Assembly: GCA_964248365.1 (NCBI GenBank)
Contig: CAXTYC010000012.1
Coordinates: forward strand, 94,232 to 125,669
Source of the DNA: an uncultured Chroococcidiopsis sp.
GTDB taxonomy: Bacteria; Cyanobacteriota; Cyanobacteriia; Cyanobacteriales; Chroococcidiopsidaceae
Direction: 5' to 3'
DNA: 31,438 bases
The notes beneath the pieces are model-generated. The model saw only the letters and a program-made list of their open reading frames with translations. It did no database searches and was not told the DNA's origin. Shown piece by piece: positions 10,228 to 31,191 of this stretch (within the stretch, counting starts at the first letter, position 1; each line of letters opens with the position of its first letter). The position numbers and the translations under genes were made by a program.

Positions 10228-10543
10228 ACTGGATAGAAAAATATATAATCTTATTGAATGAGTTGCAAAAGTTCACCTAGTAATAAGAATTTATTAGGTA
10301 CGCCTTCCGCAAACATAGACTAATTCAGGAAGTAGCAATTCCATATCCGCAAAACTACGGTATTATGAAGCGTTGATAAGGATGTGCGGATTCGGGTAGA
10401 TTTTAATCAAACAATTAAAGTTCTTTTGCAAAGAATCGAGATCTTTGTGCAGCTCCCGCTTTTAAATGGGCATACTAGAATTGTTAATTGTTAATGGCTG
10501 ATTGTTCATTGCAATTAGCTATTAACCATCAACCATTAGCCAA

Positions 10544-12007
10544 ATGTGTCGCCGATTCGTTGTATTCATCACCTTTATTCTCTGGAGTACTACAACACTG
10601 CCTCTACCAAAGTCGGCTAGTGCTGAAACTGCTTTAAATCGGGCTATTGTGCAAAGCTTACGCAACTTGGCGCAACTGATGCCACAAAATCGCTCCCCCC
10701 ATCCGGCGCGGGTATCAGATGCCATGACACCAGGGGATGCATTGTCTACTGGTCGCTCTTCTTTGGCAGAATTGCGCTTCAACGACGGCTCTTTGGCAAG
10801 AGTTGGCGAACAAGCGATATTTCGATTTGTCAAGAAGACACGTAACTTTCAATTGTCAAACGGAACTTTACTGCTGCTAATTCCCCCAGGTAGGGGACAA
10901 ACAGACGTGTGGACACCTAATGCAACAGCAGCAATTCGCGGCTCAGCATTATTCATACGTTACATTCCTGAAACTGCAACTACTGTTGTGGGAGCATTAA
11001 CCAATAGCAAAATCGAGGTATCTAACCCAAAAGCTTCCCAGCGTCAGGTATTGCAAGCAGGTCAAATGGCAGTTGTCGTCAAAGACACAATTGAAGGGCT
11101 ATACAACTTCGATCTCAAAACTTTTTATCAAACCAGCGATTTAGTACAGGGACTGGATCTAAATAAGAAAAGTGGTAAAGCTAGTTTAGATCCAGCGATC
11201 GCCTCTGTGCAAGCTGAAACTGCCACAGCCTTGGCTGCACAACCAGCTCTAACTGACGCAGGAGTAATTGTTAATCCAACTTTTGTCAGCCGTCCAGAAA
11301 ACAATCAAACTCAACAGCCGAATTTAAATCTATCGCAAGACAGCCAAAATCCTTTTAATAACAATTTTGATTCTATTAATGAGTTTTTAGAGAACTCAGA
11401 AGTTATTTCAAATCCAGATAATTCCCCATTATTGCCTACCAAGGCTGAACCCTCGATTAGTGTTCCACCGCAAAGCGGCTTTCCAACTCCATCTGAAGTT
11501 AATAATGGGGGTTCTACAAATGAGTCGGGTGTGAACAATGGTGGTTCCTTTAATGGCATACAACAGCCAAACGGGGGTAACAACTCAATTGGCGAAGGTG
11601 TTGGTGGTCGAGTTGAAAGTAACCCTGCTAACAGCAGTGGGAATGCGATCGGCGGTGGTGTAGGTGGAGGGGTGGGAAATAACCCAGGTAGCGGTAATGG
11701 GATCGGCGGTGGTGTAAGTGGAGGGGTGGGAAATAACCCAGGTAGCGGTAATGCGATCGGCGGCGGTGTAGGTGGAGGGGTGGGAAATAACCCAGGTAGC
11801 GGTAATGGGATCGGCGGTGGTGTAGGTGGAGGGGTGGAAAATAACCCAGGTAATAATGGCAATAATAATGGAGTTGGTCAAGGTGTAGGTGGTGGACGTG
11901 AAGATAATCGCGGCAATGGCAATGGCAATAATAATGGAGTTGGTCAAGGTGTAGGTGGTGGACGTGAAAATAATCGTGGTAACGGCAATGGCAACAATCG
12001 ACGTTAA
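10544..12007 (+). CDS. Exported FecR-domain protein with Gly/Asn-rich repeat tail
   Basis: Signal-like N-terminus. GDALSTGRSSLAELRFNDGSLARVGEQ...TPNATAAIRGS is the FecR-family pattern (GD.l.T....A.L.F.DGS...lg; TP.a.a.vRGT). The C-terminus is low-complexity. Confidence 0.85.
   Translation: MCRRFVVFITFILWSTTTLPLPKSASAETALNRAIVQSLRNLAQLMPQNRSPHPARVSDAMTPGDALSTGRSSLAELRFNDGSLARVGEQAIFRFVKKTRNFQLSNGTLLLLIPPGRGQTDVWTPNATAAIRGSALFIRYIPETATTVVGALTNSKIEVSNPKASQRQVLQAGQMAVVVKDTIEGLYNFDLKTFYQTSDLVQGLDLNKKSGKASLDPAIASVQAETATALAAQPALTDAGVIVNPTFVSRPENNQTQQPNLNLSQDSQNPFNNNFDSINEFLENSEVISNPDNSPLLPTKAEPSISVPPQSGFPTPSEVNNGGSTNESGVNNGGSFNGIQQPNGGNNSIGEGVGGRVESNPANSSGNAIGGGVGGGVGNNPGSGNGIGGGVSGGVGNNPGSGNAIGGGVGGGVGNNPGSGNGIGGGVGGGVENNPGNNGNNNGVGQGVGGGREDNRGNGNGNNNGVGQGVGGGRENNRGNGNGNNRR
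11639..11986 (+). repeat. Coding tandem repeats: 4x54 bp, then 2x66 bp
   Basis: Units start at 11639, 11693, 11747, 11801 (GN(A/G)IGGGV(G/S)GGVGNNPGS) and at 11855, 11921 (NGNNNGVGQGVGGGRE(D/N)NRGNG). Confidence 0.95.
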
Positions 12008-12099
12008 TACTAGCTGGCGCGCTGTTAGCTGGCGCGCTGTTATTAGTTTGTTTATTTGTATAGCAATCCGCGCATCATTGGTGAATAGTAGATGAAGGG

Positions 12100-12151
12100 G
12101 TTTGCCACCCATGCCCACCATGATCAAATTTGGTGGGCATGGGTGGCATAC
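12100..12151. repeat. Palindromic element (GTWTGCCACCCAT family), probable terminator between convergent genes
   Basis: Perfect 18-bp arms TGCCACCCATGCCCACCA / TGGTGGGCATGGGTGGCA with a 10-nt loop. Confidence 0.88.
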
Positions 12152-12192
12152 TAATCGCTAAAAGCTAATTGCTAAAAGCTAATCGCTAATCG

Positions 12193-14613
12193 CTAATTGT
12201 TTTCTGATGAAGGTGGCAAAAGATTTGTAGCAGAATCTGGAATTTTTGTAGAATCAGATATCCAAATAGCTGTAGGAGTGTCTAAATCTTCTGGGGTTTC
12301 ATTATTGTCAAATCTTTTGCCAGACAAAGAATTTGTGGAATCTATGAACTTGGTAAGAGCATTCAGGGCAACTGATGCGGAACTATAGCGCCGCCTGAAG
12401 TCATGTAGTACCATTGTGTTTAAGATTTCAGTTAACTGGGGACTAATTTGTACTTTATCTGTCCAGAGTAACTCTCCAGTTGTAGTGTCTAGCTCTAGTT
12501 CGTGGGGTGCTAACCCAGTTAAAGCTTTGATCGCACTCATGCCTACAGCATAAATATCACTACTGAAGAAGGCACGACCAGCGTTTTGCTCACTTGGGGC
12601 ATAACCGTGAGTACCGATGCTAACGGTAAGGTTAGTTTTTTCACCTGGCTCCAGTAATTGTGTGGTAACTTGTTTGACAGCTCCAAAATCAATTAGTACA
12701 AGCTTGCGGTCTGAATGCCGTCGCATGATATTACTGGGTTTAATATCGCGGTGGATGACATTGTGATTGTGGACGAATTCCAATATTTGCAATAAATCGT
12801 GCAAAATTTTGATCGCTTCGTCTTCACTAATGGGTTTACCTGGTTTGAGTTCCCAGCTAAGAGGATGCCCGACAATGTATTCTTGGACTAAATAAAATTC
12901 TTCGTCCTGTTCAAAATAGGCAAGCAGTTGAGGAATTTGGTTGTGTTTGCCGAGTTTTTCCAGAGTTTCTGCTTCTAGTTGAAATAACCTTCTAGCAATT
13001 TGCAATTGCTTGGGATCGTTGTTAGCTGGTTTGAGTTGCTTGACCACACATAGCGGATTCCCTGGACGTTGGTTATCTTCAGCTACATAAGTTTGACTGA
13101 AGCCACCATCACCTAAAACTTTGACAATTTTGTAGCGTCCTCCCAGGATTTTCCCAGAGGTAACGGGATCTTGCTGTTGTAGTCGGTCTTGGGGTTCATC
13201 CACAGAGCTAATAACATCTTGTACGAGCAAAGAGGAATCATCCTCTAAGCTGCGTTGTTGTTGTCTCAAGTTTTGGCTAATTGATCCTGCCACTAGGTAT
13301 GTAGTACCGCACAGAGCGATCGCTATCATCGGTAGGGCAGTAGGTAAAATGAGATACTGGTAGGTAAATAAGGTATAACTAATACTTCCCCAAGCAATGG
13401 CAAAGCCTAGCCCCATGCCCCATCGAGTCAAGGGGCGTTTAAAGAGAGTCAAAAGTACCGCCGAACCACCTACAAATAGCAATACCAACAAACCCCGCAT
13501 CTGTAGATTAGGAATTGCCTCTCGTATCGCCCGTCCTTGTAGTAAAGTGGCGATGCTACTTGCTTGAATTTCCACTCCGGCGAGGCGTTGGGGATACAAC
13601 CAGCTTTCGGAAAAAGGTGCTTTATGTAAGTCTTGCAACACGGCAGCTGTTGCCCCAATCAGCACAATTTTGTCTTTGAAATACTTTCCCTGCTGGAGAT
13701 ATGTATTCCAATTATCCGAATCGAGTACGTGCCAAAAAGGAATTTGCTCGAACGTCCCCGTCGGACCATAAAAATAAATGCGATCGCCTTTTTGAGGGGC
13801 TAGGGAATTTTGGATTGGGAATTCTCCCCCAGATCCCCCAGATCTCCCTAAAGAGGCTGCTGCCACAACTGCTTTTTCAAACGAGGGGATTGATATTTTT
13901 AGAGCGTCAAAATTTAAAAATTGCTTCTGGGATTTCTCGGCTAAGAGCTGGGGAAAAACACTTGCAAATCTGTGAATTCGCCCATCCGGTTCTACTGGGA
14001 AATTAACGAATCCAAGAGACCTTGGTGTTGTCCAAAGCAGGCGTTCCGGCTGTGTCAGTTGAATTACACTTCCCTGGCGCAGCGTTAGCTGTTCATATTG
14101 TGCTGCTAAAGTGACTCTACCAGGATAACGCTGCAATACTTGGGCAAAGGCGCGATCGTCTTCTATCCCGTAGCTACTGGGGCTAGCAAATACAATATCC
14201 AAGGCAACAGAGCGTACCCCTGCTTTCATGAGTTTGTCAATTACAAGCGCATAGGCACGGCGTTGCCAAGGCCAAGCTTGCAATGGTTTTAGATAAGAAT
14301 ATTGTTGTGGGTTGGTTTGATAGTATTGCTCTGGGACTGATAAAGACTGCTCATCAATTGCCAAAATCACGATGCCTTTTGGTGGTTCCATCGGGCCTCG
14401 GATTTCAAAAAACAGGCTTTGCGTTTCCGATTCTATTATTTGTACTAGTCCTACGTTGGCAGATGTAGCCATTGCTGCTAATACTACCCAAGTTGCTGTG
14501 AGAATATGACCAATACGGGCAAGTCGGTCATATTGGCGTAGCTTGACTTGTGATGACGCAATGCCAGTGGAAGTTGTTTGGCTGGTTTGAAGCGGTTTGC
14601 GGTTGTGTCCCAT
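12193..14613 (-). CDS. CHASE2-domain membrane Ser/Thr (Hanks-type) protein kinase
   Basis: CHASE2 motifs IVILAIDEQSL, WPWQR, VALDIVF, KDKIVLIGAT and GVEIQA, then 3 TM helices. Kinase motifs LGDGGFSQTY, VVKQLK, HRDIKPSN, IDFGAVK, GTHGYAPSEQ and SDIYAVG. Confidence 0.95.
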   Translation of the reverse strand: MGHNRKPLQTSQTTSTGIASSQVKLRQYDRLARIGHILTATWVVLAAMATSANVGLVQIIESETQSLFFEIRGPMEPPKGIVILAIDEQSLSVPEQYYQTNPQQYSYLKPLQAWPWQRRAYALVIDKLMKAGVRSVALDIVFASPSSYGIEDDRAFAQVLQRYPGRVTLAAQYEQLTLRQGSVIQLTQPERLLWTTPRSLGFVNFPVEPDGRIHRFASVFPQLLAEKSQKQFLNFDALKISIPSFEKAVVAAASLGRSGGSGGEFPIQNSLAPQKGDRIYFYGPTGTFEQIPFWHVLDSDNWNTYLQQGKYFKDKIVLIGATAAVLQDLHKAPFSESWLYPQRLAGVEIQASSIATLLQGRAIREAIPNLQMRGLLVLLFVGGSAVLLTLFKRPLTRWGMGLGFAIAWGSISYTLFTYQYLILPTALPMIAIALCGTTYLVAGSISQNLRQQQRSLEDDSSLLVQDVISSVDEPQDRLQQQDPVTSGKILGGRYKIVKVLGDGGFSQTYVAEDNQRPGNPLCVVKQLKPANNDPKQLQIARRLFQLEAETLEKLGKHNQIPQLLAYFEQDEEFYLVQEYIVGHPLSWELKPGKPISEDEAIKILHDLLQILEFVHNHNVIHRDIKPSNIMRRHSDRKLVLIDFGAVKQVTTQLLEPGEKTNLTVSIGTHGYAPSEQNAGRAFFSSDIYAVGMSAIKALTGLAPHELELDTTTGELLWTDKVQISPQLTEILNTMVLHDFRRRYSSASVALNALTKFIDSTNSLSGKRFDNNETPEDLDTPTAIWISDSTKIPDSATNLLPPSSENN

Positions 14614-17571: not shown

Positions 17572-17596
17572 GTAGGGTGGGCAATGCCCACCATAC
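17572..17596. repeat. REP-like palindrome GTAGGGTGGGCAATGCCCACCATAC
   Basis: GGTGGGCA/TGCCCACC inverted repeat immediately after the leuA stop. Confidence 0.82.
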
Positions 17597-17603
17597 TCAA
17601 ATT

Positions 17604-19757
17604 ATGCCACGCACTCGATCCCAATTGGAATTTCGCCCGCCGCTTCTAGTCAACTTGGGCTTATTTGCTATATTGGTGGCGATCGCCATAACCATCACCA
17701 CACTATATATATCCCACGAGCGTAACTTTCATTGGTGGATCGACTGGTATTACAAAACCATCGATGTAGCTAATGCTTTTCGTAAATCACCTTTGGCGGG
17801 AATAGATAATGTTTTACAGTCTCTGGGGGATGAGCGTAATAAAATCTATACTCTGCCGTTAGTACCATTCATCCTCATATTCGGTGAATCTCGGCTTGTC
17901 TATGAAATTGGCTTAGCTGTAGCCTATCTGATACCATTTAGTCTGAGCATGGGAGCCGTAGCTACTCAACTGATTGGGGCTAATCCTCAGAGTGTTTTTT
18001 GGTCAACAGCCCTAATTTGCTTACTAATTCCGGTTACTTGGATAGCAACCTTTTTGGGTATTCCTGACACGGGTGGATCTGCACTAATTGGATGGGCAGC
18101 TTTTGTTTACCTCAAGGATATCAAACTCAAACAGTGGTGGCAAATTCCTCTAATTGGATTTTGCTTGGGATTAGCTGTTTTGTTACGTCGCCATTTTGTC
18201 TATGGTGCGATCGCCTTTTTGTGTGCAATTACCTCACAAGCATTGATTTATTTCTTTGCCAAATTACCACACAATCCCCAAATGGCTTGGCGGAATTTGC
18301 AAGTGGTAGGTGTGCGAATTGGTTTAACTGCTACCCTAAGCTTTACTACATTAATAACTGTAGCGGGAGAGTTTACCCAACGAGCAATTACAACTGATTA
18401 TCGAAATCTTTACGCTTCGTGGACTTTGCCATTTCATAATGTTGTTGGACTGTATGCTGCTTTTTATGGGTGGGCAACTTTATTGCTGGTAGCAATTGGT
18501 TTTTCGGCTGGTATCCTTACCCATGTTTTATCGGTAACGAGTTTCAGCTTTATTTGCCTGTTTGGAATCTTCTCTTTAATAGAGTGGCTAATTGTATTAC
18601 GCTATGGAAATATTTTTTATAGCTTACATCTCACTCCAATAGTAGTACTGGGGTTAGCAGCATTTATTTGGACTTGCTTTAAATTAAATAGAATTCGCAT
18701 TTTAATGCTTGTTATTGCTGGCTGCTATTTAGTTAGTAATTTAGTTATAGGGTTAACTCCCATTGGTAGCTTCAATCACAGGTTGCGTCCTTTATTTGCG
18801 CTGAATATTCCCCCTTTAGTGCGTACAGATTATGATGAAGTTGTTCGCATGATTGATTATTTACGTAAAATAGCTCCCAACAAAGAATCTATTTATGTTG
18901 TGGGTTCTCAAAGGCTGCATCTGAATAGAAGCATGATCAGAGCAGGCGATCGCATATTATATCCACATCAAGATATCCTACTTCTACTACCAGCACCGCA
19001 AGTTGACTCTCAAGATTATTATCCCTTAGAAACACTCTTGCAGGCACAGTATGTAGTTGTGCCTAACCATCTACCAGATTATGACTGGGATTTTACTAAA
19101 GTTCCTGCTGTTGGTGAGTGGCTACCGCCCAAAGAATCCGATGTGGTAAAGGTTGTATTAGATGCCTTTACTCAAAATTGGAAAATAGCCCAAGATTTCA
19201 AACGCTTGCCTGTACATTTCACCCTAGCTGATGGTGCTATTGTTAATATTTATCAACGAATTCGCCCCACTTCTTTAGAAACGGCTGTGCAAACCCTGAC
19301 AACCATGCAACAGCAAATTGGCAAACGTCCAGGCGGACAGTTAGACTGGATCAGTTTGAGTCAACGTTGGAACTACTCATCAGTGCGGAAAAATCCAGAC
19401 AACACTTATAAATTAATAACTTATCCGATTGAGCGTACCAAAAAACAAGCAAGAACATTCCTTTATTTAGGGACTTTACCAGAAGATGCCGAAGTTACTG
19501 GTACAGTAAAATTTTTCGGCATTCGCTGTGGTACATCTCTAAATTTGAAAATGCTTAACCAAGAAGGTAATATAATTAGTTCGACCAAAAATGAATTATT
19601 TGATGAAAATTCATCTAAATTTAGCTTATCAATTACTGGTAAGAATGCAACTTATTTATTGCTAAATTTACTCAATTATGATAAAGATGATTTAATCAAT
19701 GAATGTACCCTAGAACTGAATTCTCTGGTAGTATCATCCCAGAAAACAGGTGACTAA
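17604..19757 (+). CDS. Polytopic membrane protein, GT-C/ArnT-PMT-like glycosyltransferase candidate
   Basis: About 11-12 TM segments followed by a ~300-aa soluble C-terminal domain, with an acidic residue in the first loop (WWIDW) and a G...GLAVLLRR motif. ATG 17604 is preferred because the GTG at 17577 lies inside a palindrome. Confidence 0.6.
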   Translation: MPRTRSQLEFRPPLLVNLGLFAILVAIAITITTLYISHERNFHWWIDWYYKTIDVANAFRKSPLAGIDNVLQSLGDERNKIYTLPLVPFILIFGESRLVYEIGLAVAYLIPFSLSMGAVATQLIGANPQSVFWSTALICLLIPVTWIATFLGIPDTGGSALIGWAAFVYLKDIKLKQWWQIPLIGFCLGLAVLLRRHFVYGAIAFLCAITSQALIYFFAKLPHNPQMAWRNLQVVGVRIGLTATLSFTTLITVAGEFTQRAITTDYRNLYASWTLPFHNVVGLYAAFYGWATLLLVAIGFSAGILTHVLSVTSFSFICLFGIFSLIEWLIVLRYGNIFYSLHLTPIVVLGLAAFIWTCFKLNRIRILMLVIAGCYLVSNLVIGLTPIGSFNHRLRPLFALNIPPLVRTDYDEVVRMIDYLRKIAPNKESIYVVGSQRLHLNRSMIRAGDRILYPHQDILLLLPAPQVDSQDYYPLETLLQAQYVVVPNHLPDYDWDFTKVPAVGEWLPPKESDVVKVVLDAFTQNWKIAQDFKRLPVHFTLADGAIVNIYQRIRPTSLETAVQTLTTMQQQIGKRPGGQLDWISLSQRWNYSSVRKNPDNTYKLITYPIERTKKQARTFLYLGTLPEDAEVTGTVKFFGIRCGTSLNLKMLNQEGNIISSTKNELFDENSSKFSLSITGKNATYLLLNLLNYDKDDLINECTLELNSLVVSSQKTGD

Positions 19758-19878: not shown

Positions 19879-20679
19879 ATGCAAAACGAATCCCTAGAAC
19901 GAGAGCGAAACTTTCATGATGCTTGGGCTGCTGCGATTGATGTAGAAGGTATTCGGGTAGCAGACTACTTTGAGACTTGTACCGCGCCTGAAAATCGATT
20001 CATCCTCAGACAGATGGGAGATGTGAGAGGAAAGCGACTGTTAGATTTAGGCTGTGGTGCTGGGGAAAACAGCGTTTATTTTGCGGGGAAAGGGGCGCTA
20101 TGTGTAGCATCTGACTATTCTCCTGGCATGGTGGAAGTAGCGTTAGAATTGGCATCTGCCAATGGAGTGAAAATCGAGGGACGGACGATGAATGCAATGT
20201 CGCTCGATTGTCCTGACAACTATTTTGACTTTGTTTACGCCTCTAATTTGTTGCATCATTTACCAGATCCCCGTGCAGCTATTTTAGAAATGCATCGTGT
20301 GCTAAAGCCTGGGGGTAAGGCTTGTTTTTGGGACCCGCTGAAGCACAATCCGATTATTAACGTGTATAGGCGGATTGCTACAAAGGTAAGGACAGAGGAT
20401 GAAACGCCGTTAGATATTAATATTGTTAATTTTGTCAAGGCAAATTTTTCTCGAACAAATTACGATACATTTTGGCTAGCAACTTTGTGGATTTTTTTGC
20501 GTTTTTATTTGATTGAAAAAGTCGATCCAAATAAGGAGCGTTACTGGAAGAAGATTATTATTGAACACGCCAGATTGAAACCGCAATATCGACGATTGGA
20601 AAAGTTAGATAAAGTTTTGAAAAAGGTTCCTGGGATGAAGCGATTTGCTTGGAATTTGGCTGTGGTAGCGACAAAGTAA
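19879..20679 (+). CDS. Class I SAM-dependent methyltransferase
   Basis: LLDLGCGAGE motif I, FDFVY...LLHH and EMHRVLKPGG. Confidence 0.92.
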   Translation: MQNESLERERNFHDAWAAAIDVEGIRVADYFETCTAPENRFILRQMGDVRGKRLLDLGCGAGENSVYFAGKGALCVASDYSPGMVEVALELASANGVKIEGRTMNAMSLDCPDNYFDFVYASNLLHHLPDPRAAILEMHRVLKPGGKACFWDPLKHNPIINVYRRIATKVRTEDETPLDINIVNFVKANFSRTNYDTFWLATLWIFLRFYLIEKVDPNKERYWKKIIIEHARLKPQYRRLEKLDKVLKKVPGMKRFAWNLAVVATK

Positions 20680-20843: not shown

Positions 20844-20922
20844 TATGACAATGCTGTGACGTAAATATTTCACAAAAAGGACACAGCGTAGACACACATT
20901 AGACATAGAACTTATCTAAGGT
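20844..20922 (+). promoter_or_regulatory. OmpR/PhoB-type phased repeat array plus -10, upstream of esterase 1
   Basis: TTCACA (20869), GACACA (20880), GACACA (20891), GACATA (20902), 9 nt, then TAAGGT. An additional opposite-strand GTCACA-N5-GTCATA lies at 20860-20844. Confidence 0.7.
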
Positions 20923-20947: not shown

Positions 20948-21838
20948 ATGAAGTACAAACAATATAAAAGGATTAGCTTTGCTCTGCTGCTAGCTTTAGC
21001 AAGTTTGAGTTATAGATATGTGGCGATCGCTAGTGTACCTCAACCACAGACTTCCCCAGCTACAACATCAACCACGAACTTAAGCTACCAGCTTGAAACT
21101 TACAACTCTCAGGTAATGGGTGGTAAAAGAACCTATGGCGTTTGTTTACCTCCTGGCTATGAGCAAAACCAAAATCAGCGCTACCCTGTAGTTTTTCTCC
21201 TACATGGAGGACACGGCAATCCTACTGACTGGTTTAACCCGCAAAAGGGATCAGCCTTAAAAACCTTGCAGCAACTATATGCCCAAGGCAAGTTACCACC
21301 TACTATTATTATCACCCCAGATGGTAACGATTTACGCGGTTCTAGTCCCAAATTTGATCCACAATATTTTGATGGTCCTAACGGCAAGGTGTCTACGGCA
21401 ATTGGGGAGGAATTGGTGCAAGTCGTTTCAAGTCGCTACCGGACACTTCCCACTCCGAAGTTTTGGGCGATGGGTGGGCTATCTTCTGGGGGATGGGGTG
21501 CAATCAATGTGGGACTACGGCATCTAAATCACTTCTCGATTTTGTTCAGCCATAGTGGTTATTTTGTCGATAATAGTGGAGCGCAAAATAGTCCACTGAA
21601 ATATATTAAAAATATTTCTCCTCAAGCCAGACAGAATTTGGTAATTTACTTAGATACTGGCACTGGGGATAGTTATTATCTTAATCAAGCGCAAAAGTTT
21701 CATGACTTGCTCAATAAATTGCAAATTAAAAATGTGTTTAATTCGTTTCCAGGGACTCACAGTTGGCGATATTGGCGGCAGCATTTGGCAGATTCTCTAA
21801 CTTATGTGGGGGAACAATTCCGAATTCGTAATTCATAA
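20948..21838 (+). CDS. Exported esterase-family alpha/beta hydrolase (esterase 1)
   Basis: Signal peptide, YPVVFLLHGG, nucleophile elbow GLSSGG, YLDTG..D and PGTHSWRYW. Confidence 0.9.
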   Translation: MKYKQYKRISFALLLALASLSYRYVAIASVPQPQTSPATTSTTNLSYQLETYNSQVMGGKRTYGVCLPPGYEQNQNQRYPVVFLLHGGHGNPTDWFNPQKGSALKTLQQLYAQGKLPPTIIITPDGNDLRGSSPKFDPQYFDGPNGKVSTAIGEELVQVVSSRYRTLPTPKFWAMGGLSSGGWGAINVGLRHLNHFSILFSHSGYFVDNSGAQNSPLKYIKNISPQARQNLVIYLDTGTGDSYYLNQAQKFHDLLNKLQIKNVFNSFPGTHSWRYWRQHLADSLTYVGEQFRIRNS

Positions 21839-21861
21839 TTGAAAAATCAAAATTATGAGCA

Positions 21862-22710
21862 ATGAAGCCAAACAACGTGAAGCTCGAAGATGATGTTGTT
21901 AATGACCCTTTAGCAGGTGAAAGAATTCATCTGCGTTGGGGTGTAGATTTGCAGGTTTGCTACAGTCAGGGAAAAACTCCTGCAATTGTATTTTTGCATG
22001 GTGGGTTAGGAAACCGCTTCAACTGGCGATCGCAATACGAGTTTTTCCAGTCTGGGGGTAGGGAAGTTTTAGCTTACGACTTAGCTGGACACGGGCAATC
22101 TGTCCCCTACCGTCGCTACTCTTTGGGACGGTATTGCAGAGATTTAACCAGACTATTGCACAAATTCCACATCTCTTCTCCCATTTTGTGCTGCCATAGC
22201 TATGGAGTTCCTCTCGGTTTAGAGTGGGCAAGGCGGCATCAAATTAGTGCTTTAGTTGCTATTGCTGGCGGTACTCATGACCTCGATCCTTGGTGGGAAG
22301 TACCGCTAATGAAGTTCCTCGCTTGGGGTGGTAGACACTTGTATCGATTACCACGAGTACAGCATCTGACCAATACTTTAAGTAGCACTCATCGTCATGA
22401 TGTGATGCAGCGGTTTTTTGCCGAAGCCCCAGTGCCAACTAATGTGCATCCTTATAAAGCTTTAGAAATATTTTGGGGCTATAACTTCTTTGAGCGTCAC
22501 TTAACCCATTGGCAGCCGGAGATTCCCCTACTGGTAATTAGTGGTGGGCAAGATCCGACATTTACTGCCCAAATGGGAGCAGATTTAGCCGCCAGCTTTG
22601 GGCAAGGAACACATTTGCATATAAAAGAGGCGGGACATTTAGTGATGGCTGAGTATCCAGAAGTAATTAATGATGCGATAGCGAGATTCCTCATCCAACA
22701 TAGATTATAG
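21862..22710 (+). CDS. Alpha/beta fold hydrolase (no signal peptide)
   Basis: VFLHGGLG, YDLAGHGQS, CHSYG nucleophile, GGQD and AGHLVMAE. Confidence 0.9.
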   Translation: MKPNNVKLEDDVVNDPLAGERIHLRWGVDLQVCYSQGKTPAIVFLHGGLGNRFNWRSQYEFFQSGGREVLAYDLAGHGQSVPYRRYSLGRYCRDLTRLLHKFHISSPILCCHSYGVPLGLEWARRHQISALVAIAGGTHDLDPWWEVPLMKFLAWGGRHLYRLPRVQHLTNTLSSTHRHDVMQRFFAEAPVPTNVHPYKALEIFWGYNFFERHLTHWQPEIPLLVISGGQDPTFTAQMGADLAASFGQGTHLHIKEAGHLVMAEYPEVINDAIARFLIQHRL

Positions 22711-22713
22711 TCA

Positions 22714-22773
22714 GTTTGCCACCCATGCCCACCATCTTATAATTTGTAATTTGGTGGGCATTGCCCACCAAAC
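22714..22773. repeat. Palindromic element (GTTTGCCACCCATGCCCACCA...TGGTGGGCATTGCCCACCAAAC)
   Basis: The left 21 bp are identical to 12100-12120; it lies between convergent stop codons. Confidence 0.85.
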
Positions 22774-22781
22774 CTTGTGGG

Positions 22782-23714
22782 TTAGGCTGCTAATCGCTGG
22801 CGAAGCTCATAAATGCCCAAGAGTAGGACGGCAATTATCAATGGTAGGAAGTAGTAGATACCTCGGTATGCCAAAAGCGCTCCCAAGAGGGTAGGAGATG
22901 AGATAGGGGGCGAGAGCAACAGTAAAATTATTGTCTCAAACACACCAAGTCCGCCTGGAACATTGCTGATGAGTGCTGCAATTTGTGCTAGCAGGTATAT
23001 CCCGAAAAAACCAGGGAAAGACAAACTACTTGATGGTAGAAGCGCGTAGAGGACACTTGCTGCTAGTGTCCAATCAAGGGAAGCCACCAGAAGTTGAGCA
23101 ACGGCGAACTTGGTAGAGAGATGGGGAAATACCAACTTACCAATTCTTAACGCATTCCTGCTGAGAGTATTCCATACCAGATATCCCACCACCAACAGCA
23201 GAAATATTGCTCCCACAGGCTGCACTGAAGCAAACGGAAGGTGGAGTAAGCTTGGAACTGCCAAGGGTTCCTTTAAAAACATCACACCACTAACTGTAAA
23301 AAGTCCCAGCCAGAAGCTTAAATTGCAAAAAGCAACTATATTGGTAATCTGAAGCGCTGATAATCCCCAGGTTGAGTAAAGCCGATAGCGGATAGCACTA
23401 CCAGTTAGTAGAGCAAATCCAATAGTATTACTAATGGCATAAGTAATGACAGATGTTAGCGCGATTTTTCCATAGGGGAGTGGATGGCGAACGTACCGCA
23501 TACCAAGAGTGTCATACGCAGTTAGCATTAAGTAGTTTAATACGGTCAGTACTAGCGCCAACAGCAGGTGATTTTTGGGAATTTCCTCCAGGCTGTGTAA
23601 GACATCACGATAGTTATACTGTTTCAGTTCTAGATTAATCGCCCACAGGGAAAGCCCAAATAGGAGTAAACCAAAAATTGGGGAAGCAAATTGAGACAGG
23701 CGCTTTAGATTCAT
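22782..23714 (-). CDS. MprF-type flippase / lysylphosphatidylglycerol synthase TM domain (stand-alone)
   Basis: LTAYD, LTGSAIRYRLYSTWG, SNVPGGLGVFE and LLAYRGIYYFLPL are motifs of the MprF N-terminal membrane domain; about 8 TM helices. Confidence 0.9.
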   Translation of the reverse strand: MNLKRLSQFASPIFGLLLFGLSLWAINLELKQYNYRDVLHSLEEIPKNHLLLALVLTVLNYLMLTAYDTLGMRYVRHPLPYGKIALTSVITYAISNTIGFALLTGSAIRYRLYSTWGLSALQITNIVAFCNLSFWLGLFTVSGVMFLKEPLAVPSLLHLPFASVQPVGAIFLLLVVGYLVWNTLSRNALRIGKLVFPHLSTKFAVAQLLVASLDWTLAASVLYALLPSSSLSFPGFFGIYLLAQIAALISNVPGGLGVFETIILLLLSPPISSPTLLGALLAYRGIYYFLPLIIAVLLLGIYELRQRLAA

Positions 23715-23764
23715 GCGAAAATCGTGGTTTTTATTACAGCATCTGGATCGTCGAATCTTAGGTC

Positions 23765-25438
23765 TTAGGTATCAGGTTTGAAATAATCTAGCAAGCGATC
23801 GCCAGAGTCAGCCCGAATCAAAGCAACCACAACGGATGGTAAAGCCCTTAAACTGGGATAAACCAGATAACGCGGCTCCCAGCGGGGGTGAAATTTTTCT
23901 TTGTAGGCGTGTAAACCTTTGAAGTTATAAAATTTATTTAGGTGTTCGTAGAGATAGCGTAACCCCTTTTCCAGACGAGGAGAGTCGCTCGTTTCACCTA
24001 CACCAGAAAGCGCTGATAAACCCAAATTAAAGCCGTCGTATCCCAATTCTTTGAAATGCCCAAACATTGAGATAAATAAGAAATCCATCGTGCCAGATTC
24101 TACCTCGCTACGATGCCGCATTAAATCAATCGTGATTTCGTTAATTTGATACTCCGGTACGACATTGGCAAAAGCAGTTATGTAACCCTCTTTTGTCTCT
24201 ACAGTAGCAATTTCACACTCGCGCAAATAATCATCATCAAACCAACCGACTGAAAACTTTTTTTCCGCCCCTTGCATCAACTTCAGCCATTCATCACTAA
24301 CGTCTCTCAACTTGAGTAACAACTTATCTGAAATTGGTGGTTGGTAAAATTTGACTTGATATCCCGCCTTGGTAAGGCGATTGTTGTAATTTCTGAAGTT
24401 CTGGTTAGCTTTTCCCTTCAGGCTAAACGTTTGAAGATCGACGATCGCTTCTTCGCCCATTCGTAGCACTCTAAAGCCAAGGTTTTGATAGAGGTCGAGG
24501 TCATCTGGTAGAGTTTGGTAAAAGGCAGGATACCAATCATTGCGAGCGCAAAATTGTCCAAACCCGATCAATACTTCTTTTCTGTCTTCGACTGGACCTA
24601 TGGGATCTCCCAAAGCGATCGCCCCCCGCCCCTTTGCTACATAAGCGATTACACTTTGACCTGATGGGCTGAAATAGTAAGCCTTATCATCAAATAAAGT
24701 AAATCGTGCCAAAGAAGATCGGCCATATTGCTCTACAATTGCCTTAGCTTGCTTTCGTTCCCTAGAATCAGCTCTATCGCGCACCAGAACGGGGCGCAGT
24801 AGCATAAACAGGGCATAACCCACAGTCACAGCACCGACAATATAAATTGAATTAGCAAAAAAGTTTGCGAAGCGAGTTTGTGGTTGCAGCCCAGCGTTAT
24901 CCTCTGTGAAGAACATCGCTAGGGTTTGCAGCAGTGCTTGTGTTAAAGAAAACTTGACTTGATAATAACGTTGATCTATTAGATAAAAACCTGCTGTACC
25001 ATAAGCTAGTGTGAACAGCAACGCTGCGATCAACACTCGAATACCCTGAGCAATTGAGGGACGATCTGACTGGGCTGTAAACACATTCCGCATCAGCAGC
25101 AATTGAATTAGCAATACCCCAGATAGCAGACTCTCCTCATAATCCAATCCCTTGACTAAATGGCTGATTATTGATATAATTAGCAAACTGACAGTGAGCA
25201 ACCAAGCAACTCGCTTGCGCCGTAACAAATTAGTGGCAAGCGTTAGCAGCACAAAGCCAGTAAGAGCTGCAAATAGATGCCCACTTACCCTGATTTCAAA
25301 AGGAAAAAATTGTTTGAGTATTGCTGTCCGCCCTCGTAAGTTGGGGGTTACGGCAGACACCAGGTTAACCACTCCCACTAATCCGGTTAGTAGTGCTGCT
25401 GTCCATAAGCTTATTTGATTACGCTTCACACTTAGCAA
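23765..25438 (-). CDS. Aminoacyl-phosphatidylglycerol synthase (MprF C-terminal/DUF2156 domain with ~6 N-terminal TMs)
   Basis: LLRRKRVAW, ALGDPIGP, MGEEAIVDL, FSVGWF, IDLMR, GTMDFLF, FNLGLSAL and FYNFKGLHAYKEKFHPRWEPRYL. TTG start 8 nt after GAGGAG. Confidence 0.92.
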   Translation of the reverse strand: MLSVKRNQISLWTAALLTGLVGVVNLVSAVTPNLRGRTAILKQFFPFEIRVSGHLFAALTGFVLLTLATNLLRRKRVAWLLTVSLLIISIISHLVKGLDYEESLLSGVLLIQLLLMRNVFTAQSDRPSIAQGIRVLIAALLFTLAYGTAGFYLIDQRYYQVKFSLTQALLQTLAMFFTEDNAGLQPQTRFANFFANSIYIVGAVTVGYALFMLLRPVLVRDRADSRERKQAKAIVEQYGRSSLARFTLFDDKAYYFSPSGQSVIAYVAKGRGAIALGDPIGPVEDRKEVLIGFGQFCARNDWYPAFYQTLPDDLDLYQNLGFRVLRMGEEAIVDLQTFSLKGKANQNFRNYNNRLTKAGYQVKFYQPPISDKLLLKLRDVSDEWLKLMQGAEKKFSVGWFDDDYLRECEIATVETKEGYITAFANVVPEYQINEITIDLMRHRSEVESGTMDFLFISMFGHFKELGYDGFNLGLSALSGVGETSDSPRLEKGLRYLYEHLNKFYNFKGLHAYKEKFHPRWEPRYLVYPSLRALPSVVVALIRADSGDRLLDYFKPDT

Positions 25439-25496
25439 AAGCTCATCTCCTCATCACAAAATTACTCAATTTTTAGATAGTTTTCTTTTAGTGTGC

Positions 25497-26426
25497 CTAA
25501 TTATTTCGTTTTTGTAGTGCTGCTTGAAACTGCTTACCCACATAGCTCAGCGAATCCGCTGCGTGTTTGTGGTCATAATTCCATCCCATATCAGGACCAG
25601 ACAAACCATGACCACCTGGGAAGGCATAGAAAACATTGTCAATGCCTAACTGATTCAAGGTTTGATGGAACTTTCGGGTAGAGTCGAGAAATTCGCTGCC
25701 AGTTAAGTCATTAAGTCCAGCATCTAGATAGATGTGCAAGCGTTGGCGCTGCTCAGCGGGAATCTGTTTGACAAATACTTGAGGGCTGTTCTGGGGTCCA
25801 CTGTCATCAGTAAAATAACCGATGTGACTAAAGAAAATATTGAAGTTGTCCAAATGGCGTAACCCAATGTTGAGCGCACCCCATCCACCAGAAGACAGCC
25901 CCCCCATTGCCCAAAACTGTGGCTCGTCGTAGGTGCGATAGCGCGATTTGACAACTTCAACCAGTTCTGAGCCAATTAACGTACCAACGTTCCCATTGGG
26001 ACCATCGTAATAATCGGGGTCAAACAGCGGACTTGAACCCCTTTTGTCATTGCCATCGGGGGTAATTACAATTGAGTATGGCAGCTTACCGCTTTTGTAG
26101 AGGTCATGCAGAACGGGGATAATGCCAATCTTGTCTACCCAAGCACGGGCATCATCGTGTCCGCCGTGTAACAAGAAGATTACAGGATAGCGTTTATTGG
26201 TATGGTCGTAACCAGGAGGCAAAATTAGACCGTATTGGCGTACCTCGCCCATTGCCTTACTGTTAAAGGTTTTGAGTTGAAAGGTCAGACCTGTGCCAGC
26301 GGTACTGACGGTGGGCGGATCTAACTGGGGCGCACCAGCAATAAACACATACCAGTAGCCTGCCGCTCCTACAGCTGCTACTGTACCGATAAAAATCGCT
26401 AAAATTTTGCCATAACGAAATTTCAT
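25497..26426 (-). CDS. Membrane-anchored/exported esterase-family hydrolase (esterase 2, paralogue of 20948-21838)
   Basis: N-terminal TM helix, YPVIFLLHGG and GLSSGG. Shares the block ITPDGND.RGSSP.FDP.Y.DGPNG.V.T.IG.ELV.VV.SRYRT with esterase 1. Confidence 0.9.
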   Translation of the reverse strand: MKFRYGKILAIFIGTVAAVGAAGYWYVFIAGAPQLDPPTVSTAGTGLTFQLKTFNSKAMGEVRQYGLILPPGYDHTNKRYPVIFLLHGGHDDARAWVDKIGIIPVLHDLYKSGKLPYSIVITPDGNDKRGSSPLFDPDYYDGPNGNVGTLIGSELVEVVKSRYRTYDEPQFWAMGGLSSGGWGALNIGLRHLDNFNIFFSHIGYFTDDSGPQNSPQVFVKQIPAEQRQRLHIYLDAGLNDLTGSEFLDSTRKFHQTLNQLGIDNVFYAFPGGHGLSGPDMGWNYDHKHAADSLSYVGKQFQAALQKRNN

Positions 26427-26819: not shown

Positions 26820-27527
26820 ATGGATATTTTAATTATTGAGGATGAACCGGAAATTGCCCGACTCATTCAGCTATCTTTAGAAAAAGAAGGGTTTTCGTGC
26901 CAGATCTGCCGCGATGGTTTAACTGCTTTGCGAATTGCCCAGGATGTGCAGCCAGACTTAATCATCCTTGACTTGATGTTACCAGGTTTGGATGGACTGG
27001 AAGTGTGCGCTCGAATACGACAAAAACCTGGAGCGAAAGATCCTTATATTTTGATGGTGACAGCTAAAGGTGAGGAAATCGATCGCGTCATTGGTTTATC
27101 TACGGGAGCTGATGATTATCTAGTCAAGCCTTTCAGTCCCAGAGAATTAATTGCTAGAGTGCGGGCATTACTGCGGCGTAGCTTGCGTCAAGGTGGACAA
27201 CAACAGATCTATCGAAGTGGGCATTTCATAGTAGATGTTGAGCAACGCACAGCCAGCATACAGTATAATTCCAATTCTCCAGAAATGCTGGACTTAACCA
27301 CTTTGGAATTTAACCTGTTATCGACATTTGTCAGCCATCCTGGTCGAGTTTGGAACCGTACCCAGCTAATTGACAAACTTTGGGGAAGTGACTTCTTTGG
27401 AGATGAGCGGGTAGTAGATACTCATGTAGCGCGGCTCAGGAAAAAAGTAGAGCCAGATCCAGCAAATCCCACTTTTATCAAGACTGTTGTTGGTGTTGGC
27501 TATAAATTTGAAGATCCAGCAGTTTAG
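26820..27527 (+). CDS. OmpR/PhoB-family response regulator
   Basis: IIEDE, LIILDLMLPG (phospho-Asp), GADDYLVKPF and the winged helix ERVVDTHVARLRKK...TVVGVGYKF. Confidence 0.96.
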   Translation: MDILIIEDEPEIARLIQLSLEKEGFSCQICRDGLTALRIAQDVQPDLIILDLMLPGLDGLEVCARIRQKPGAKDPYILMVTAKGEEIDRVIGLSTGADDYLVKPFSPRELIARVRALLRRSLRQGGQQQIYRSGHFIVDVEQRTASIQYNSNSPEMLDLTTLEFNLLSTFVSHPGRVWNRTQLIDKLWGSDFFGDERVVDTHVARLRKKVEPDPANPTFIKTVVGVGYKFEDPAV

Positions 27528-27538
27528 AGAACCCAGTT

Positions 27539-28627
27539 ATGAGGTTAGGCTTGCGATCGCGTCTTTTTCTCTCCCATGTGCTAGTAACGGCAGTAGGGAT
27601 ACTCAGTCTTGTGATCATCGGCAAAGTCTCCTCACCTCGCTTTTTTGTCGTCCACCTGCAACAACTAGAAGATGAGGGTTGGGATTTAATCGATGTCCGT
27701 ACTGAATTGGTTCAAGGATTTGAAGCTGCTTGGTATCTTGGTACTGTTTGGTCAATACTGATCGGCTCAACCGCAGCTGGGGGGTTAAGTTACTGGGTGT
27801 CCAAACGGATTATGCAACGTTTAGCCGAAATGGAACAAATCACCCAAAAGTTTGCCGTCGGTGAACTAGATGCACGGCTACCAGCTAGTGATATTCCCGA
27901 ACTTAACCGCCTAAATACCAGTTTCAATCGTATGGCGGCAAGTTTGTCAGGGGTAGAACAGCGGCGGCGAGAACTCGTGAGCGATCTTACTCATGAACTG
28001 CGGACACCACTGACAGTTGTGCGCGGTTACTTAGAGGAACTTGCTGACGGCGGACTTGAACCATCTTCAGAGATTTATCAACAACTAATCAGAGAAACCA
28101 AACGGTTGGAACGCTTAGTAAACGATTTGCAAGAACTCTCCAAGGCTGAGGCTGGATACTTACCAATCAACTTGCAAGCAGTTAATCTGCGTCCCTTGCT
28201 GGAGTCATTGGTAGAAAAATTTGCCGACCAGATTTTAGAAGATGGTCCAGTTTTGCGTCTAAAATGTCCCCTCCAGCTACCTCTGGTATTAGCCGATCTT
28301 GACCGCACCGAGCAAGTTTTGGTTAACTTGGTTGGTAATGCAGTGCGTTACACTCCTAAAGGTTCTATTACCGTCCGTGTCTGGACTGAACCTGGTAAAG
28401 TATGGATTGCAGTAATTGATACAGGTATTGGTATTGCCCCAGAGGATTTACCCCATGTATTTGAGCGCTTTTTTCGTGCCGATCGCTCTCGTACTAGGCA
28501 TTCTGGGGGTACTGGTATTGGTTTGGCGATTTCCCGCCGTTTAGTTGAACTACAAGGTGGGCAAATTTTTGTGGAAAGTCAACAAGGATCGGGTAGTATA
28601 TTTCGGTTTTTCTTGCCTTTGGCTTAA
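27539..28627 (+). CDS. BaeS-like sensor histidine kinase (2 TM, short loop, HAMP, HisKA, HATPase)
   Basis: THELRTPL, NLVGNAVRYT, DTGIGI, FERFFR and GTGIGLAI; only about 35-40 aa between the TM helices. Confidence 0.95.
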   Translation: MRLGLRSRLFLSHVLVTAVGILSLVIIGKVSSPRFFVVHLQQLEDEGWDLIDVRTELVQGFEAAWYLGTVWSILIGSTAAGGLSYWVSKRIMQRLAEMEQITQKFAVGELDARLPASDIPELNRLNTSFNRMAASLSGVEQRRRELVSDLTHELRTPLTVVRGYLEELADGGLEPSSEIYQQLIRETKRLERLVNDLQELSKAEAGYLPINLQAVNLRPLLESLVEKFADQILEDGPVLRLKCPLQLPLVLADLDRTEQVLVNLVGNAVRYTPKGSITVRVWTEPGKVWIAVIDTGIGIAPEDLPHVFERFFRADRSRTRHSGGTGIGLAISRRLVELQGGQIFVESQQGSGSIFRFFLPLA

Positions 28628-29826: not shown

Positions 29827-31119
29827 CTACTGTTGTTCTGCTTGGGCTGTTAAAGCCTCTGGACGCACAGCCAAGTCAAAATTTCGCCCATTGCGATGCA
29901 GCCCTATTCGCATTTGACTACCCACAGAGCTATTTTCTACCGCCTGTTGTACAGTTTCAGCGCTCTTTACAGTTTGCCCATTGATCTGGTGAATTACATC
30001 TCCTGCGCGCAAACCAGCTTTAGCCGCCGGAGAATTAGGCATGACTTTAACAACCAACACGCCACTATCTTCATCCACAGTCAAACCACTGTTAGGATCG
30101 CTGTTGATATTTTGTTTCAACTCAGGTGTGAGTTGCGCCATCTGAATACCCAAGTAAGCGTGTTCTACCTTGCCTTTGGCGATTAGTTGCTGGGAAATAC
30201 GTTGAGCTGTATTAATCGGAATCGCAAAGCCTAAACCTTGAGCGCCTTGGAGAATTGCTGTATTCATCCCAATTACTTCACCACGAGCATTCAGCAGTGG
30301 TCCACCGGAGTTACCTGGATTGATTGCAGCATCGGTTTGAATAAAGCTAACTCGCTTATCAGGAACGCCAACATCGCTGCTAGAGCGACCTGTAGCACTG
30401 ATGATACCTGTAGTGACGGTATTATCTAATCCTAGAGGGTTGCCGATCGCGATCGCCCATTCCCCAGCCTTGAGCCGATCCGAGTTACCCAAAGCTACCG
30501 TAGGCAGCTTATTTGCCTGAATCTTAACAACGGCTACATCGGTAACAGTATCTTCACCCAACACCTTACCCTGATACTTACGTCCATCCTTCAGAGTCAC
30601 TGATACTGTATCCGCACCATCAACAACGTGGGCATTGGTAAGAATACGACCATCGGCACCAATAATAAAACCAGAGCCAGTCCCGCGTTCAATCTGCTTT
30701 TGAGATTGTTTGGGTAATTGCGACCCAAAGAAATCACGAAAGAACGGGTCTTTAAATATCTCTGGAGCTTGAGTAGTAACAGTTCTAGAAGAATCAATCC
30801 TTACTACAGCAGGTCCCACTTTGTCAACCACAGCAGTCACAAAATTGGTGTCCCCAGTCGGTGGCAAACTAGCTACAGTCGTTGGAGGTGGTGCAACAGA
30901 TTGTTGAGAATTAGCTGGCTGTGCTGCTAGAGAATTTCGCGCCTGCAAGTAATTTCCAGAAACAGGAATTGCAGCGCCTAGTAGTATTAATGATAAATAT
31001 GTAGCAGACTTCTGCCATAAAAATTTTTTATTAGCCCCAGTTGGATGAACTGAAGCATTTGAGGAAATATGATTGGATTGACCCGAACCACGATGGAAAT
31101 TAGGCTTTTTGATTTGCAT
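29827..31119 (-). CDS. HtrA/DegP-family (HhoA/HhoB-like) serine protease with one PDZ domain
   Basis: GTGSGFII, LTNAHVV, DVAVVKI, QTDAAINPGNSGGPL and a C-terminal PDZ (SPAAKAGLRAGDVI). ATG 31119 follows AGGAGG. Confidence 0.95.
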   Translation of the reverse strand: MQIKKPNFHRGSGQSNHISSNASVHPTGANKKFLWQKSATYLSLILLGAAIPVSGNYLQARNSLAAQPANSQQSVAPPPTTVASLPPTGDTNFVTAVVDKVGPAVVRIDSSRTVTTQAPEIFKDPFFRDFFGSQLPKQSQKQIERGTGSGFIIGADGRILTNAHVVDGADTVSVTLKDGRKYQGKVLGEDTVTDVAVVKIQANKLPTVALGNSDRLKAGEWAIAIGNPLGLDNTVTTGIISATGRSSSDVGVPDKRVSFIQTDAAINPGNSGGPLLNARGEVIGMNTAILQGAQGLGFAIPINTAQRISQQLIAKGKVEHAYLGIQMAQLTPELKQNINSDPNSGLTVDEDSGVLVVKVMPNSPAAKAGLRAGDVIHQINGQTVKSAETVQQAVENSSVGSQMRIGLHRNGRNFDLAVRPEALTAQAEQQ

Positions 31120-31191
31120 TCGTAATACCTCCTGTAAGGAGGAAGGTAAAACCAAGTTTTGTTTAATTGCTTTCTTGTGCTGACACTTCTA

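Follow-up and report, generated by a model that had tools for sequence, protein, structure and literature searches.

A split, synthase-first MprF with esterase partners in Chroococcidiopsis: a candidate system for aminoacyl-lipid synthesis and turnover

Background

Work on aminoacylated membrane lipids has indicated that the synthases which make them can be encoded together with serine hydrolases. According to the parts of two reports that treat these enzymes, VirJ/AcvB and AhyD, operon partners of aminoacyl-phosphatidylglycerol (aminoacyl-PG) synthases, hydrolyse aminoacyl-PG and control its level, AcvB acting on the periplasmic side (PMC6103681; PMC13197417). PesT-type esterases are the one class of synthase partner whose role is described as still undecided: PesT is needed for alanyl-PG (Ala-PG) in Corynebacterium glutamicum, and a transferase or a hydrolase role has been proposed for it (PMC6103681). 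A lysX-Rv1639c arrangement has been described in mycobacteria (PMC9504009). As to the synthases, the halves 1-320 and 328-840 of Staphylococcus aureus MprF are reported to be functional in trans (PMC8131360; PMC4324311), and stand-alone PplT flippase domains as well as flippase-less synthases are already known (bioRxiv 10.1101/2022.03.11.483950). Here a locus that encodes such a synthase together with a flippase, two esterases and a third hydrolase is described from an uncultured Chroococcidiopsis sp.; "the window" denotes the whole stretch of DNA analysed, 31,438 nucleotides of contig CAXTYC010000012.1 (assembly GCA_964248365.1, positions 94,232 to 125,669).

The locus is a real, conserved variant of the known pairing of synthase and esterase, previously unstudied. 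The present analysis extends this pairing in four ways: by a cytoplasmic hydrolase that depends on the synthase, by a natural fusion in reversed order, by a candidate regulatory box and by a branch of the esterases linked to glucans. (A literature search that left subscription journals outside its scope surfaced no paper on cyanobacterial aminoacyl lipids or on this module; the primary PesT and AhyD papers may list members.) For its function, aminoacyl-PG synthesis with dedicated hydrolytic turnover, AcvB-like in role and PesT-like in family, is the reading placed first here, with roughly even confidence.

The locus

The module consists of the following features:

20948-21838, plus strand: esterase 1 (est1), 296 amino acids (aa), PF00756, likely exported by a cleavable signal
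21862-22710, plus strand: alpha/beta hydrolase, 282 aa, PF00561, cytoplasmic
22712-22789, no strand: double hairpin between the converging operons, a probable shared terminator, from folding compared with shuffles
22782-23714, minus strand: flippase, 310 aa, PF03706 (PplT domain), stand-alone MprF-type
23765-25438, minus strand: synthase, 557 aa, PF09924 and PF16995, aminoacyl-tRNA-dependent lipid synthase
25497-26426, minus strand: esterase 2 (est2), 309 aa, PF00756, with an N-terminal membrane anchor

The arrangement proposed in a first-pass annotation of the sequence, in which esterase 2, synthase and flippase run in that order toward esterase 1 and the alpha/beta hydrolase, is confirmed. 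All five open reading frames (ORFs) are unbroken at the coordinates first given, and Pfam and NCBIfam searches agree with the label of each. Within the two units the genes are closely spaced (58 bp between esterase 2 and synthase, 50 bp between synthase and flippase, 23 bp between esterase 1 and hydrolase). The converging ends are separated by a 71-bp spacer with the double hairpin, which folds at -31.8 kcal/mol (z -3.63; none of 200 shuffles was equally stable); a scan for sigma-70 promoters and terminators gave a result at chance level. The source genome has one synthase and only these two esterases, and the named close homologues are cyanobacterial.

Synthase and flippase as separated halves of MprF

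Against NF033480, the MprF model, the flippase covers positions 2-302 (235 bits) and the synthase positions 320-840 (502 bits), both scores lying below the 600-bit cut-off of the fused model. The synthase combines six hydrophobic segments with a GNAT-type PF09924 domain (289.5 bits; cut-off 27.5) and corresponds to MprF minus its N-terminal flippase half; its motifs KxFSxGW, D438, R441 and YNFxGLxxxKxKF are conserved across 30 rows. The flippase, encoded by a separate adjacent gene, has PF03706 (59.5 bits; cut-off 33.4) and carries PGGLGVFE and YR motifs. Rather than the single-chain, flippase-first architecture of MprF there are two ORFs, synthase first. Because the break between them coincides with the boundary of the S. 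aureus halves that work in trans, and because stand-alone PplT domains and flippase-less synthases are known, the split is mechanistically unsurprising. (A frameshift or assembly artefact was considered and ruled out: a clean stop and a clean start flank the gap, and stand-alone synthases are present at 27 of 28 other loci.)

Those 28 other full-length synthase loci, viewed over up to 16 kb and some of them ended by contig ends, also bear on gene order. A flippase gene is nearby in nine; it is directly downstream of the synthase, or fused to its C terminus, in four and directly upstream in none. The reversed order claimed for the split MprF is therefore borne out, and it is not unique to the window. 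The natural fusion, a 906-aa synthase-then-flippase protein (L055:7328-10048), is a circular permutation of MprF. (A GT2 gene lies near this fusion, and the genome that holds it has no esterase match.)

A LysX-type assignment of the synthase was rejected. The protein scores 172 bits with the LysX model, compared with 502 for NF033480, is 23-24% identical to three LysX proteins (97-117 bits), falls in a separate clade and carries no lysyl-tRNA synthetase (LysRS); its best solved relative is the LysPG synthase domain of B. licheniformis. Since it is MprF-like and not LysX-like, PG is favoured over diacylglycerol (DAG) as the probable acceptor.

Association with the synthase in cyanobacteria

The survey covered 301 genomes of the phylum, with eight candidates per genome scored in the hydrolase search. 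A synthase match was found in 35 genomes, full length in 29. An esterase is present in 22, every one of which has a synthase match (21 full length, and one a membrane-less synthase that the esterase adjoins), and the hydrolase is present in 12, all with a synthase. In family f23 (76 genomes) a hand tally was made after weak, partial or DUF3131-only matches had been dropped. Here 48 genomes match P0127, an esterase-DUF3131 fusion, two of them via DUF3131 only, and 51 match PF09924, five of them weakly or partially; the resulting esterase-bearing and synthase-bearing sets are the same 46 genomes, and the 24 with the hydrolase all lie within them. The pair is patchy within genera. Since kin are not independent, these counts are descriptions and not statistics; nevertheless they link the esterases and the third hydrolase to the synthase, and they clearly dispose of the refuting condition named in the first-pass annotation, a lack of co-occurrence between esterases and synthase in other genomes.

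The flippase is tied to the synthase loosely. It is found in 46 genomes, 28 of them lacking a synthase match, and 14 of the 29 genomes with a full-length synthase have no close match to it; all five such genomes that were tested hold other PF03706 proteins. (The close homologues in the 28 synthase-less genomes belong to families f6, f9, f12 and f16, and several adjoin a QueF-like gene.)

Esterase 2 occurs at 20 of the 28 other synthase loci, with the synthase as its immediate downstream neighbour at 19; esterase 1 lies in the vicinity of the synthase at four, and the hydrolase does so at seven. All five genes are together at one of these loci (L033), which argues for a core pair with optional partners and against a fixed five-gene pathway. 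The window's order of esterase, synthase and flippase recurs on a Chroococcidiopsis plasmid.

Two further observations concern the synthase. Broken remnants of it in two genomes of the same genus (G374:C7:2824-3157 and G376:C12:27169-27490) show recent loss of the module. A divergent, membrane-less PF09924 protein (343-354 aa) has a partner from the same esterase clade at L062:7389-9505 and G327:C1:6402057-6403963; at L062 it is divergent from a two-component pair, and an HtrA protease is nearby, as in the window.

Beyond cyanobacteria

The same order, esterase, synthase and flippase, is also present on a Rubrobacter plasmid. Among 80 esterase loci from named genome records of other phyla, 11 adjoin a synthase (in Actinomycetota, Chloroflexota and Dormibacterota); the remaining 69 have no adjacent synthase and are mostly feruloyl-esterase-like genes of Bacteroidota. 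In P0219, esterase and synthase are fused in one protein. In actinomycetes 59 synthase places were found, and among the 20 examined, which were chosen for long or LysX-like frames, six have a related esterase within the 10-kb stretch. One of the actinomycete loci (L385) has LysX followed 54 bp on by a 480-aa PF00756 protein, which corresponds to the lysX-Rv1639c arrangement (PMC9504009). The synthase-linked esterases of actinomycetes are distant from the cyanobacterial ones (E about 1e-9 to 1e-24).

Other synthase architectures were encountered in passing. Three actinomycete proteins have LysRS at the N terminus and the lipid synthase at the C terminus, the reverse of LysX (L390:4242-7802, L391:2087-5638 and L392:2450-6010), and a PF00756-type esterase lies within a few kb of each. 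At L396:3219-5768 a synthase has a weak N-terminal match to a rhomboid domain (23.6 bits).

The esterases and the cytoplasmic hydrolase

Both esterases have the GLSSGG motif and one N-terminal hydrophobic segment. The first-pass annotation was right to call them paralogues with this motif; its "long identical blocks" were an overstatement, as the two proteins are 53% identical, with at most 14 consecutive identical aa and only 7 aa in the next-longest runs. A recent local duplication was rejected: DNA identity is 69% over 294 nt, and in the tree esterase 1 and esterase 2 are old subfamilies. In esterase 2 the hydrophobic anchor spans approximately residues 11-29 and is followed by a conserved stretch, Y-x-F-x-x-G-x-P-Q-x-D; sequence inspection and hydropathy suggest that the corresponding segment of esterase 1 is a likely cleavable signal. 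A lipobox is present in six of 12 esterase-1-type or unlinked relatives inspected. The predicted triads, with roles assigned by alignment, are Ser178, Asp240 and His273 in esterase 2 (invariant in 19 esterases) and Ser179, Asp241 and His271 in esterase 1. After the triad His, esterase 2 has a 7-residue insert that is absent from esterase 1, so the two may differ in substrate. The alignment also holds seven invariant Asp residues, which by analogy with AcvB would suit a cationic head group.

The esterase model (pLDDT 78) has CE1 feruloyl esterases as its nearest solved folds (TM about 0.65). In a quick 43-row tree the cyanobacterial esterases form one clade (support 100), and 13 feruloyl-esterase-like rows are separate from all synthase-linked rows (support 97). 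(This tree is the cleaned version of a larger one, also quick, of 101 rows with 40 unlinked rows thinned out and a few overlapping spurious ORFs.) No synthase is near the CE1-like loci. Five proteins of the wider group (P0138, P0146, P0147, P0209 and P0213) have two esterase domains, in some cases joined by many membrane helices.

The alpha/beta hydrolase has no hydrophobic segment. Its Ser113, Asp231 and His259, assigned by alignment, are invariant in 12 rows, and its matches in the structure atlas and the PDB are generic alpha/beta hydrolases only. No fused form was found among 1587 longer candidates, which is weak evidence.

Proposed function

In the proposed mechanism, the synthase would move an amino acid from aminoacyl-tRNA onto a lipid, probably PG; which amino acid cannot be read from the sequence. 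The flippase, encoded by a gene of its own, would then work in trans to carry the aminoacyl lipid outward. Removal of the amino acid by the two esterases and the cytoplasmic hydrolase would set the level of this lipid. Both esterases probably face the periplasm, where a Ser-acyl intermediate would end in hydrolysis. Esterase 2 may be the dedicated, membrane-tethered partner of the synthase. The optional partners, under regulation of their own, would be esterase 1, exported or a lipoprotein and acting further out, and the cytoplasmic hydrolase, acting on the inner leaflet. This reading is supported by the intact catalytic motifs, by the close association of esterase and hydrolase with the synthase across genomes, by the agreement of the split point with the S. 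aureus halves, and by the hydrolytic role of the characterised operon partners VirJ/AcvB and AhyD. A predicted complex of synthase and esterase 2 scored 0.00 in two runs (mark 0.32), which is evidence neither way.

Several points weigh against this turnover reading. The only PF00756 partner to have been studied, PesT, is needed to form Ala-PG and is perhaps a transferase (PMC6103681). In M. marinum, disruption of the lysX-linked esterase is reported to leave lysyl-DAG unchanged (bioRxiv 10.1101/2025.11.06.685907), a result that a simple hydrolase model does not predict and that neither simple model explains well. Simple turnover of a single lipid would need fewer than three hydrolases. The nearest solved folds of the esterases are carbohydrate esterases, and one branch of the family sits in a glucan operon. 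Eight of the 29 genomes with a full-length synthase have no esterase match, and five have neither esterase nor hydrolase, so the hydrolytic partners are dispensable. Finally, the co-occurrence counts include relatives that are not independent.

The first-pass annotation had cast the esterases as transacylases. This is unproven: VirJ/AcvB and AhyD are hydrolases, PesT is undecided and lysyl-DAG did not change in M. marinum. One form of it, which we consider unlikely, is a transfer between lipids, in which esterase 2 would shift the amino acid from aminoacyl-DAG or aminoacyl-PG to outer-leaflet PG, a glycolipid or lipid A. Antigen 85 is an example of a transacylase within PF00756. The link to the synthase is closer for esterase 2 than for the flippase, and 10 of the 21 genomes with synthase and esterase have no close flippase match; yet the five tested genomes without such a match contain other PF03706 proteins, and some synthases occur without any esterase. 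The esterase-synthase fusion of P0219 would also suit a transfer between lipids, as would the transferase role proposed for PesT, which is necessary for Ala-PG (PMC6103681). Six-helix AlaDAGS and LysX are described as making aminoacyl-DAG (PMC10580965), and the cyanobacterial synthase likewise has six hydrophobic segments; however, it is far from LysX and closer to the fused MprFs, and the match between the LysX-linked esterases and the cyanobacterial profile is weak (E 3.6e-10 and 2.7e-9).

A glucan-linked branch of the esterases

A second form of transfer, held slightly less likely still, would have the aminoacyl lipid serve as an activated carrier from which the exported esterases pass the amino acid to a glycan of the periplasm or cell wall. 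OpgB and OpgE, which decorate periplasmic glucans from lipid donors, offer an analogy. The evidence comes from longer homologues of the esterases: nine were found among 2973 candidates, and all nine are esterase-DUF3131 fusions. The DUF3131 model (pLDDT 85) resembles endo-beta-1,2-glucanases and the middle domain of cyclic glucan synthase, with fold matches to 5gzk (E 1e-9, TM 0.57), 8rf0 and 8wy1 (E 5e-5). A glucanase clan that unites these two groups has been described, with no mention of DUF3131 in the part of that account available here (PMC12102758). A literature search found nothing on DUF3131 in a glucan role, the name occurring once each in four unrelated papers.

The fusions belong to an operon that also encodes DUF3131 proteins and a GT2 synthase, and at two of 29 metagenome loci an unfused esterase is present in such an operon. 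In four of 29 other loci the esterase slot is taken by an OpgC-family acyltransferase, all four belonging to one lineage (97-99% identical). The glucan-linked esterases branch as one clade from the esterase-2 group (support 99-100), and both f23 genomes with a fusion retain the synthase along with esterase 2, at a distance of 9 kb in one of the two. Together with the carbohydrate-binding nearest structures of the esterases, these findings speak for a link to glycans. On the other side, a single clade means a single evolutionary event, just as the OpgC loci are one lineage; the operon lacks an esterase at six of eight genome loci examined (one ended by a contig end) and is present in two genomes with neither synthase nor esterase; and a glucan de-acylase, the usual role of CE1 enzymes, would account for the recruited copy equally well. 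Extracellular polysaccharide (EPS), one of the acceptors suggested by the first-pass annotation, thus gains a concrete lead from the fusions, but the DUF3131 operon was not found in the window's genome, where a tblastn search agrees with a scan whose control also gave no match. That the esterase clade consists of periplasmic aminoacyl-transferases loading envelope glycans from flipped MprF lipid, with one branch tied to a beta-1,2-glucan-type operon, is judged quite unlikely. If the glucan link did reflect transfer, the decoration of glycans would draw on MprF lipids as donors; cyanobacteria would have a tRNA-fed route to amino-acid-decorated periplasmic glucans, and the PesT question would be settled in favour of transfer.

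The DUF3131 operon recurs in cyanobacteria in its own right (L279:1251-9625, L280:5815-16389, L283:5325-15437 and L145:6954-16624). It consists of an unannotated gene of 380-480 aa, three to four DUF3131 domains and a cellulose-synthase-like GT2, often adjoins hybrid kinases and a response regulator, and is a candidate periplasmic beta-glucan synthesis system.

Candidate regulation and neighbouring genes

Three features of the window may belong to the control of the module:

20846-20906, minus strand: tandem TGTC(A) half-sites with an 11-bp period, upstream of esterase 1, a candidate response-regulator box
26820-27527, plus strand: OmpR/PhoB-type response regulator, divergent from esterase 2
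27539-28627, plus strand: HAMP sensor kinase, with the response regulator, divergent from esterase 2

Upstream of esterase 1 there are five half-sites, a pair (20846-20861) and a triple (20880-20906). With the box defined as TGTCA-N6-TGTCA at 9/10 matches or better, a motif chosen from the same data and applied to rows many of which are kin, it is present in 19 of 33 upstream regions for the hydrolase (shuffle mean 0.66) and in six of 14 for esterase 1 (shuffle mean 0.38), compared with four of 44 for esterase 2, none of 54 for the synthase and none of 30 for the regulator. A genome-wide scan with a TGTCA matrix was not discriminating (80 matches, with the esterase 1 site ranked 29th). The two-component pair adjoins the hydrolase in 19 of 24 f23 loci and the synthase in three of nine loci of close relatives. 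Its sensor kinase is found in 66 of the 301 genomes, about 44 of them without a synthase by hand tally. Box and recurrent neighbour make a regulatory link of the module plausible. (As a guess, the pair may correspond to Hik10-Rre3 of Synechocystis.)

The same data carry the weakest of the alternatives, that only esterase 2 serves the synthase, whereas esterase 1 and the hydrolase, as envelope-stress enzymes under common control, would act on unrelated esters and cluster here for regulatory reasons: the distribution of the box, the position of the hydrolase beside the two-component pair and not the synthase in f23, the rarity of both genes near the synthase and the several esterase-1-type copies that stand alone all suit it, yet we hold it the least likely, as neither gene was found in a synthase-less genome (0/22, 0/12 and 0/24), whereas the kinase often was, and genes that have moved elsewhere remain paired, either with one another or with the flippase (L087 and L090).

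Other genes of the window may be noted. The stretch directly upstream of esterase 1 encodes first a multi-pass membrane protein of 726 aa that matches nothing in Pfam or NCBIfam (17577-19757) and then a SAM methyltransferase (19879-20679); at the synthase loci no conserved occurrence of either gene was seen. A 422-aa ORF without a Pfam match, a FecR-domain protein and a CHASE2 Ser/Thr kinase are grouped at 8959-14613, and an HhoA/HhoB/HtrA protease (29827-31155) lies two genes past the two-component pair.

Comparison with known systems

The main phospholipid of cyanobacteria, PG, is important for photosynthesis, so a dedicated system for its modification and turnover would be new physiology. 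In addition, these esterases are small, have a single anchor and come from a non-pathogen, and the MprF beside them is naturally modular; the choice between a hydrolase and a transferase role is therefore open to testing gene by gene.

Among described systems, MprF itself (S. aureus, R. tropici, P. aeruginosa and B. licheniformis) is represented here by both of its halves with their conserved motifs; it differs in that the halves are now two genes with the synthase first, and in that the flippase is often unlinked or replaced. VirJ/AcvB of proteobacteria and AhyD of Enterococcus are, like the enzymes here, serine hydrolases encoded with a synthase, but the cyanobacterial hydrolases belong to different families, and none of the three has a VirJ/AcvB match in Pfam or NCBIfam. 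CE1 feruloyl/acetyl esterases (5vol, 7b5v and 1jjf) have the fold and triad in common with the cyanobacterial esterases, which are set apart by GLSSGG in place of GLSMGG, a membrane anchor, a separate clade and a context without polysaccharide use.

A further likeness is to AlaDAGS-PesT of C. glutamicum and lysX-Rv1639c of mycobacteria, which likewise combine a six-helix synthase with a PF00756 esterase. The comparison with PesT drawn in the first-pass annotation is apt for Pfam family and gene pairing; the synthase is closer to the fused MprFs and lies outside the LysX clade (LysX alone was used in this lineage comparison). A LysX-linked esterase matches the cyanobacterial profile at E 3.6e-10 and falls on the same side of the tree as the cyanobacterial proteins, in a quick tree with long branches and a single PF00756 subfamily set. 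The cyanobacterial esterases nevertheless have one anchor where the PesT/Rv1639c type has several helices, and are distant from the LysX-linked esterases. To the pairing of synthase and esterase seen in these actinobacteria, the cyanobacterial locus adds a second esterase paralogue, a flippase gene and a third hydrolase.

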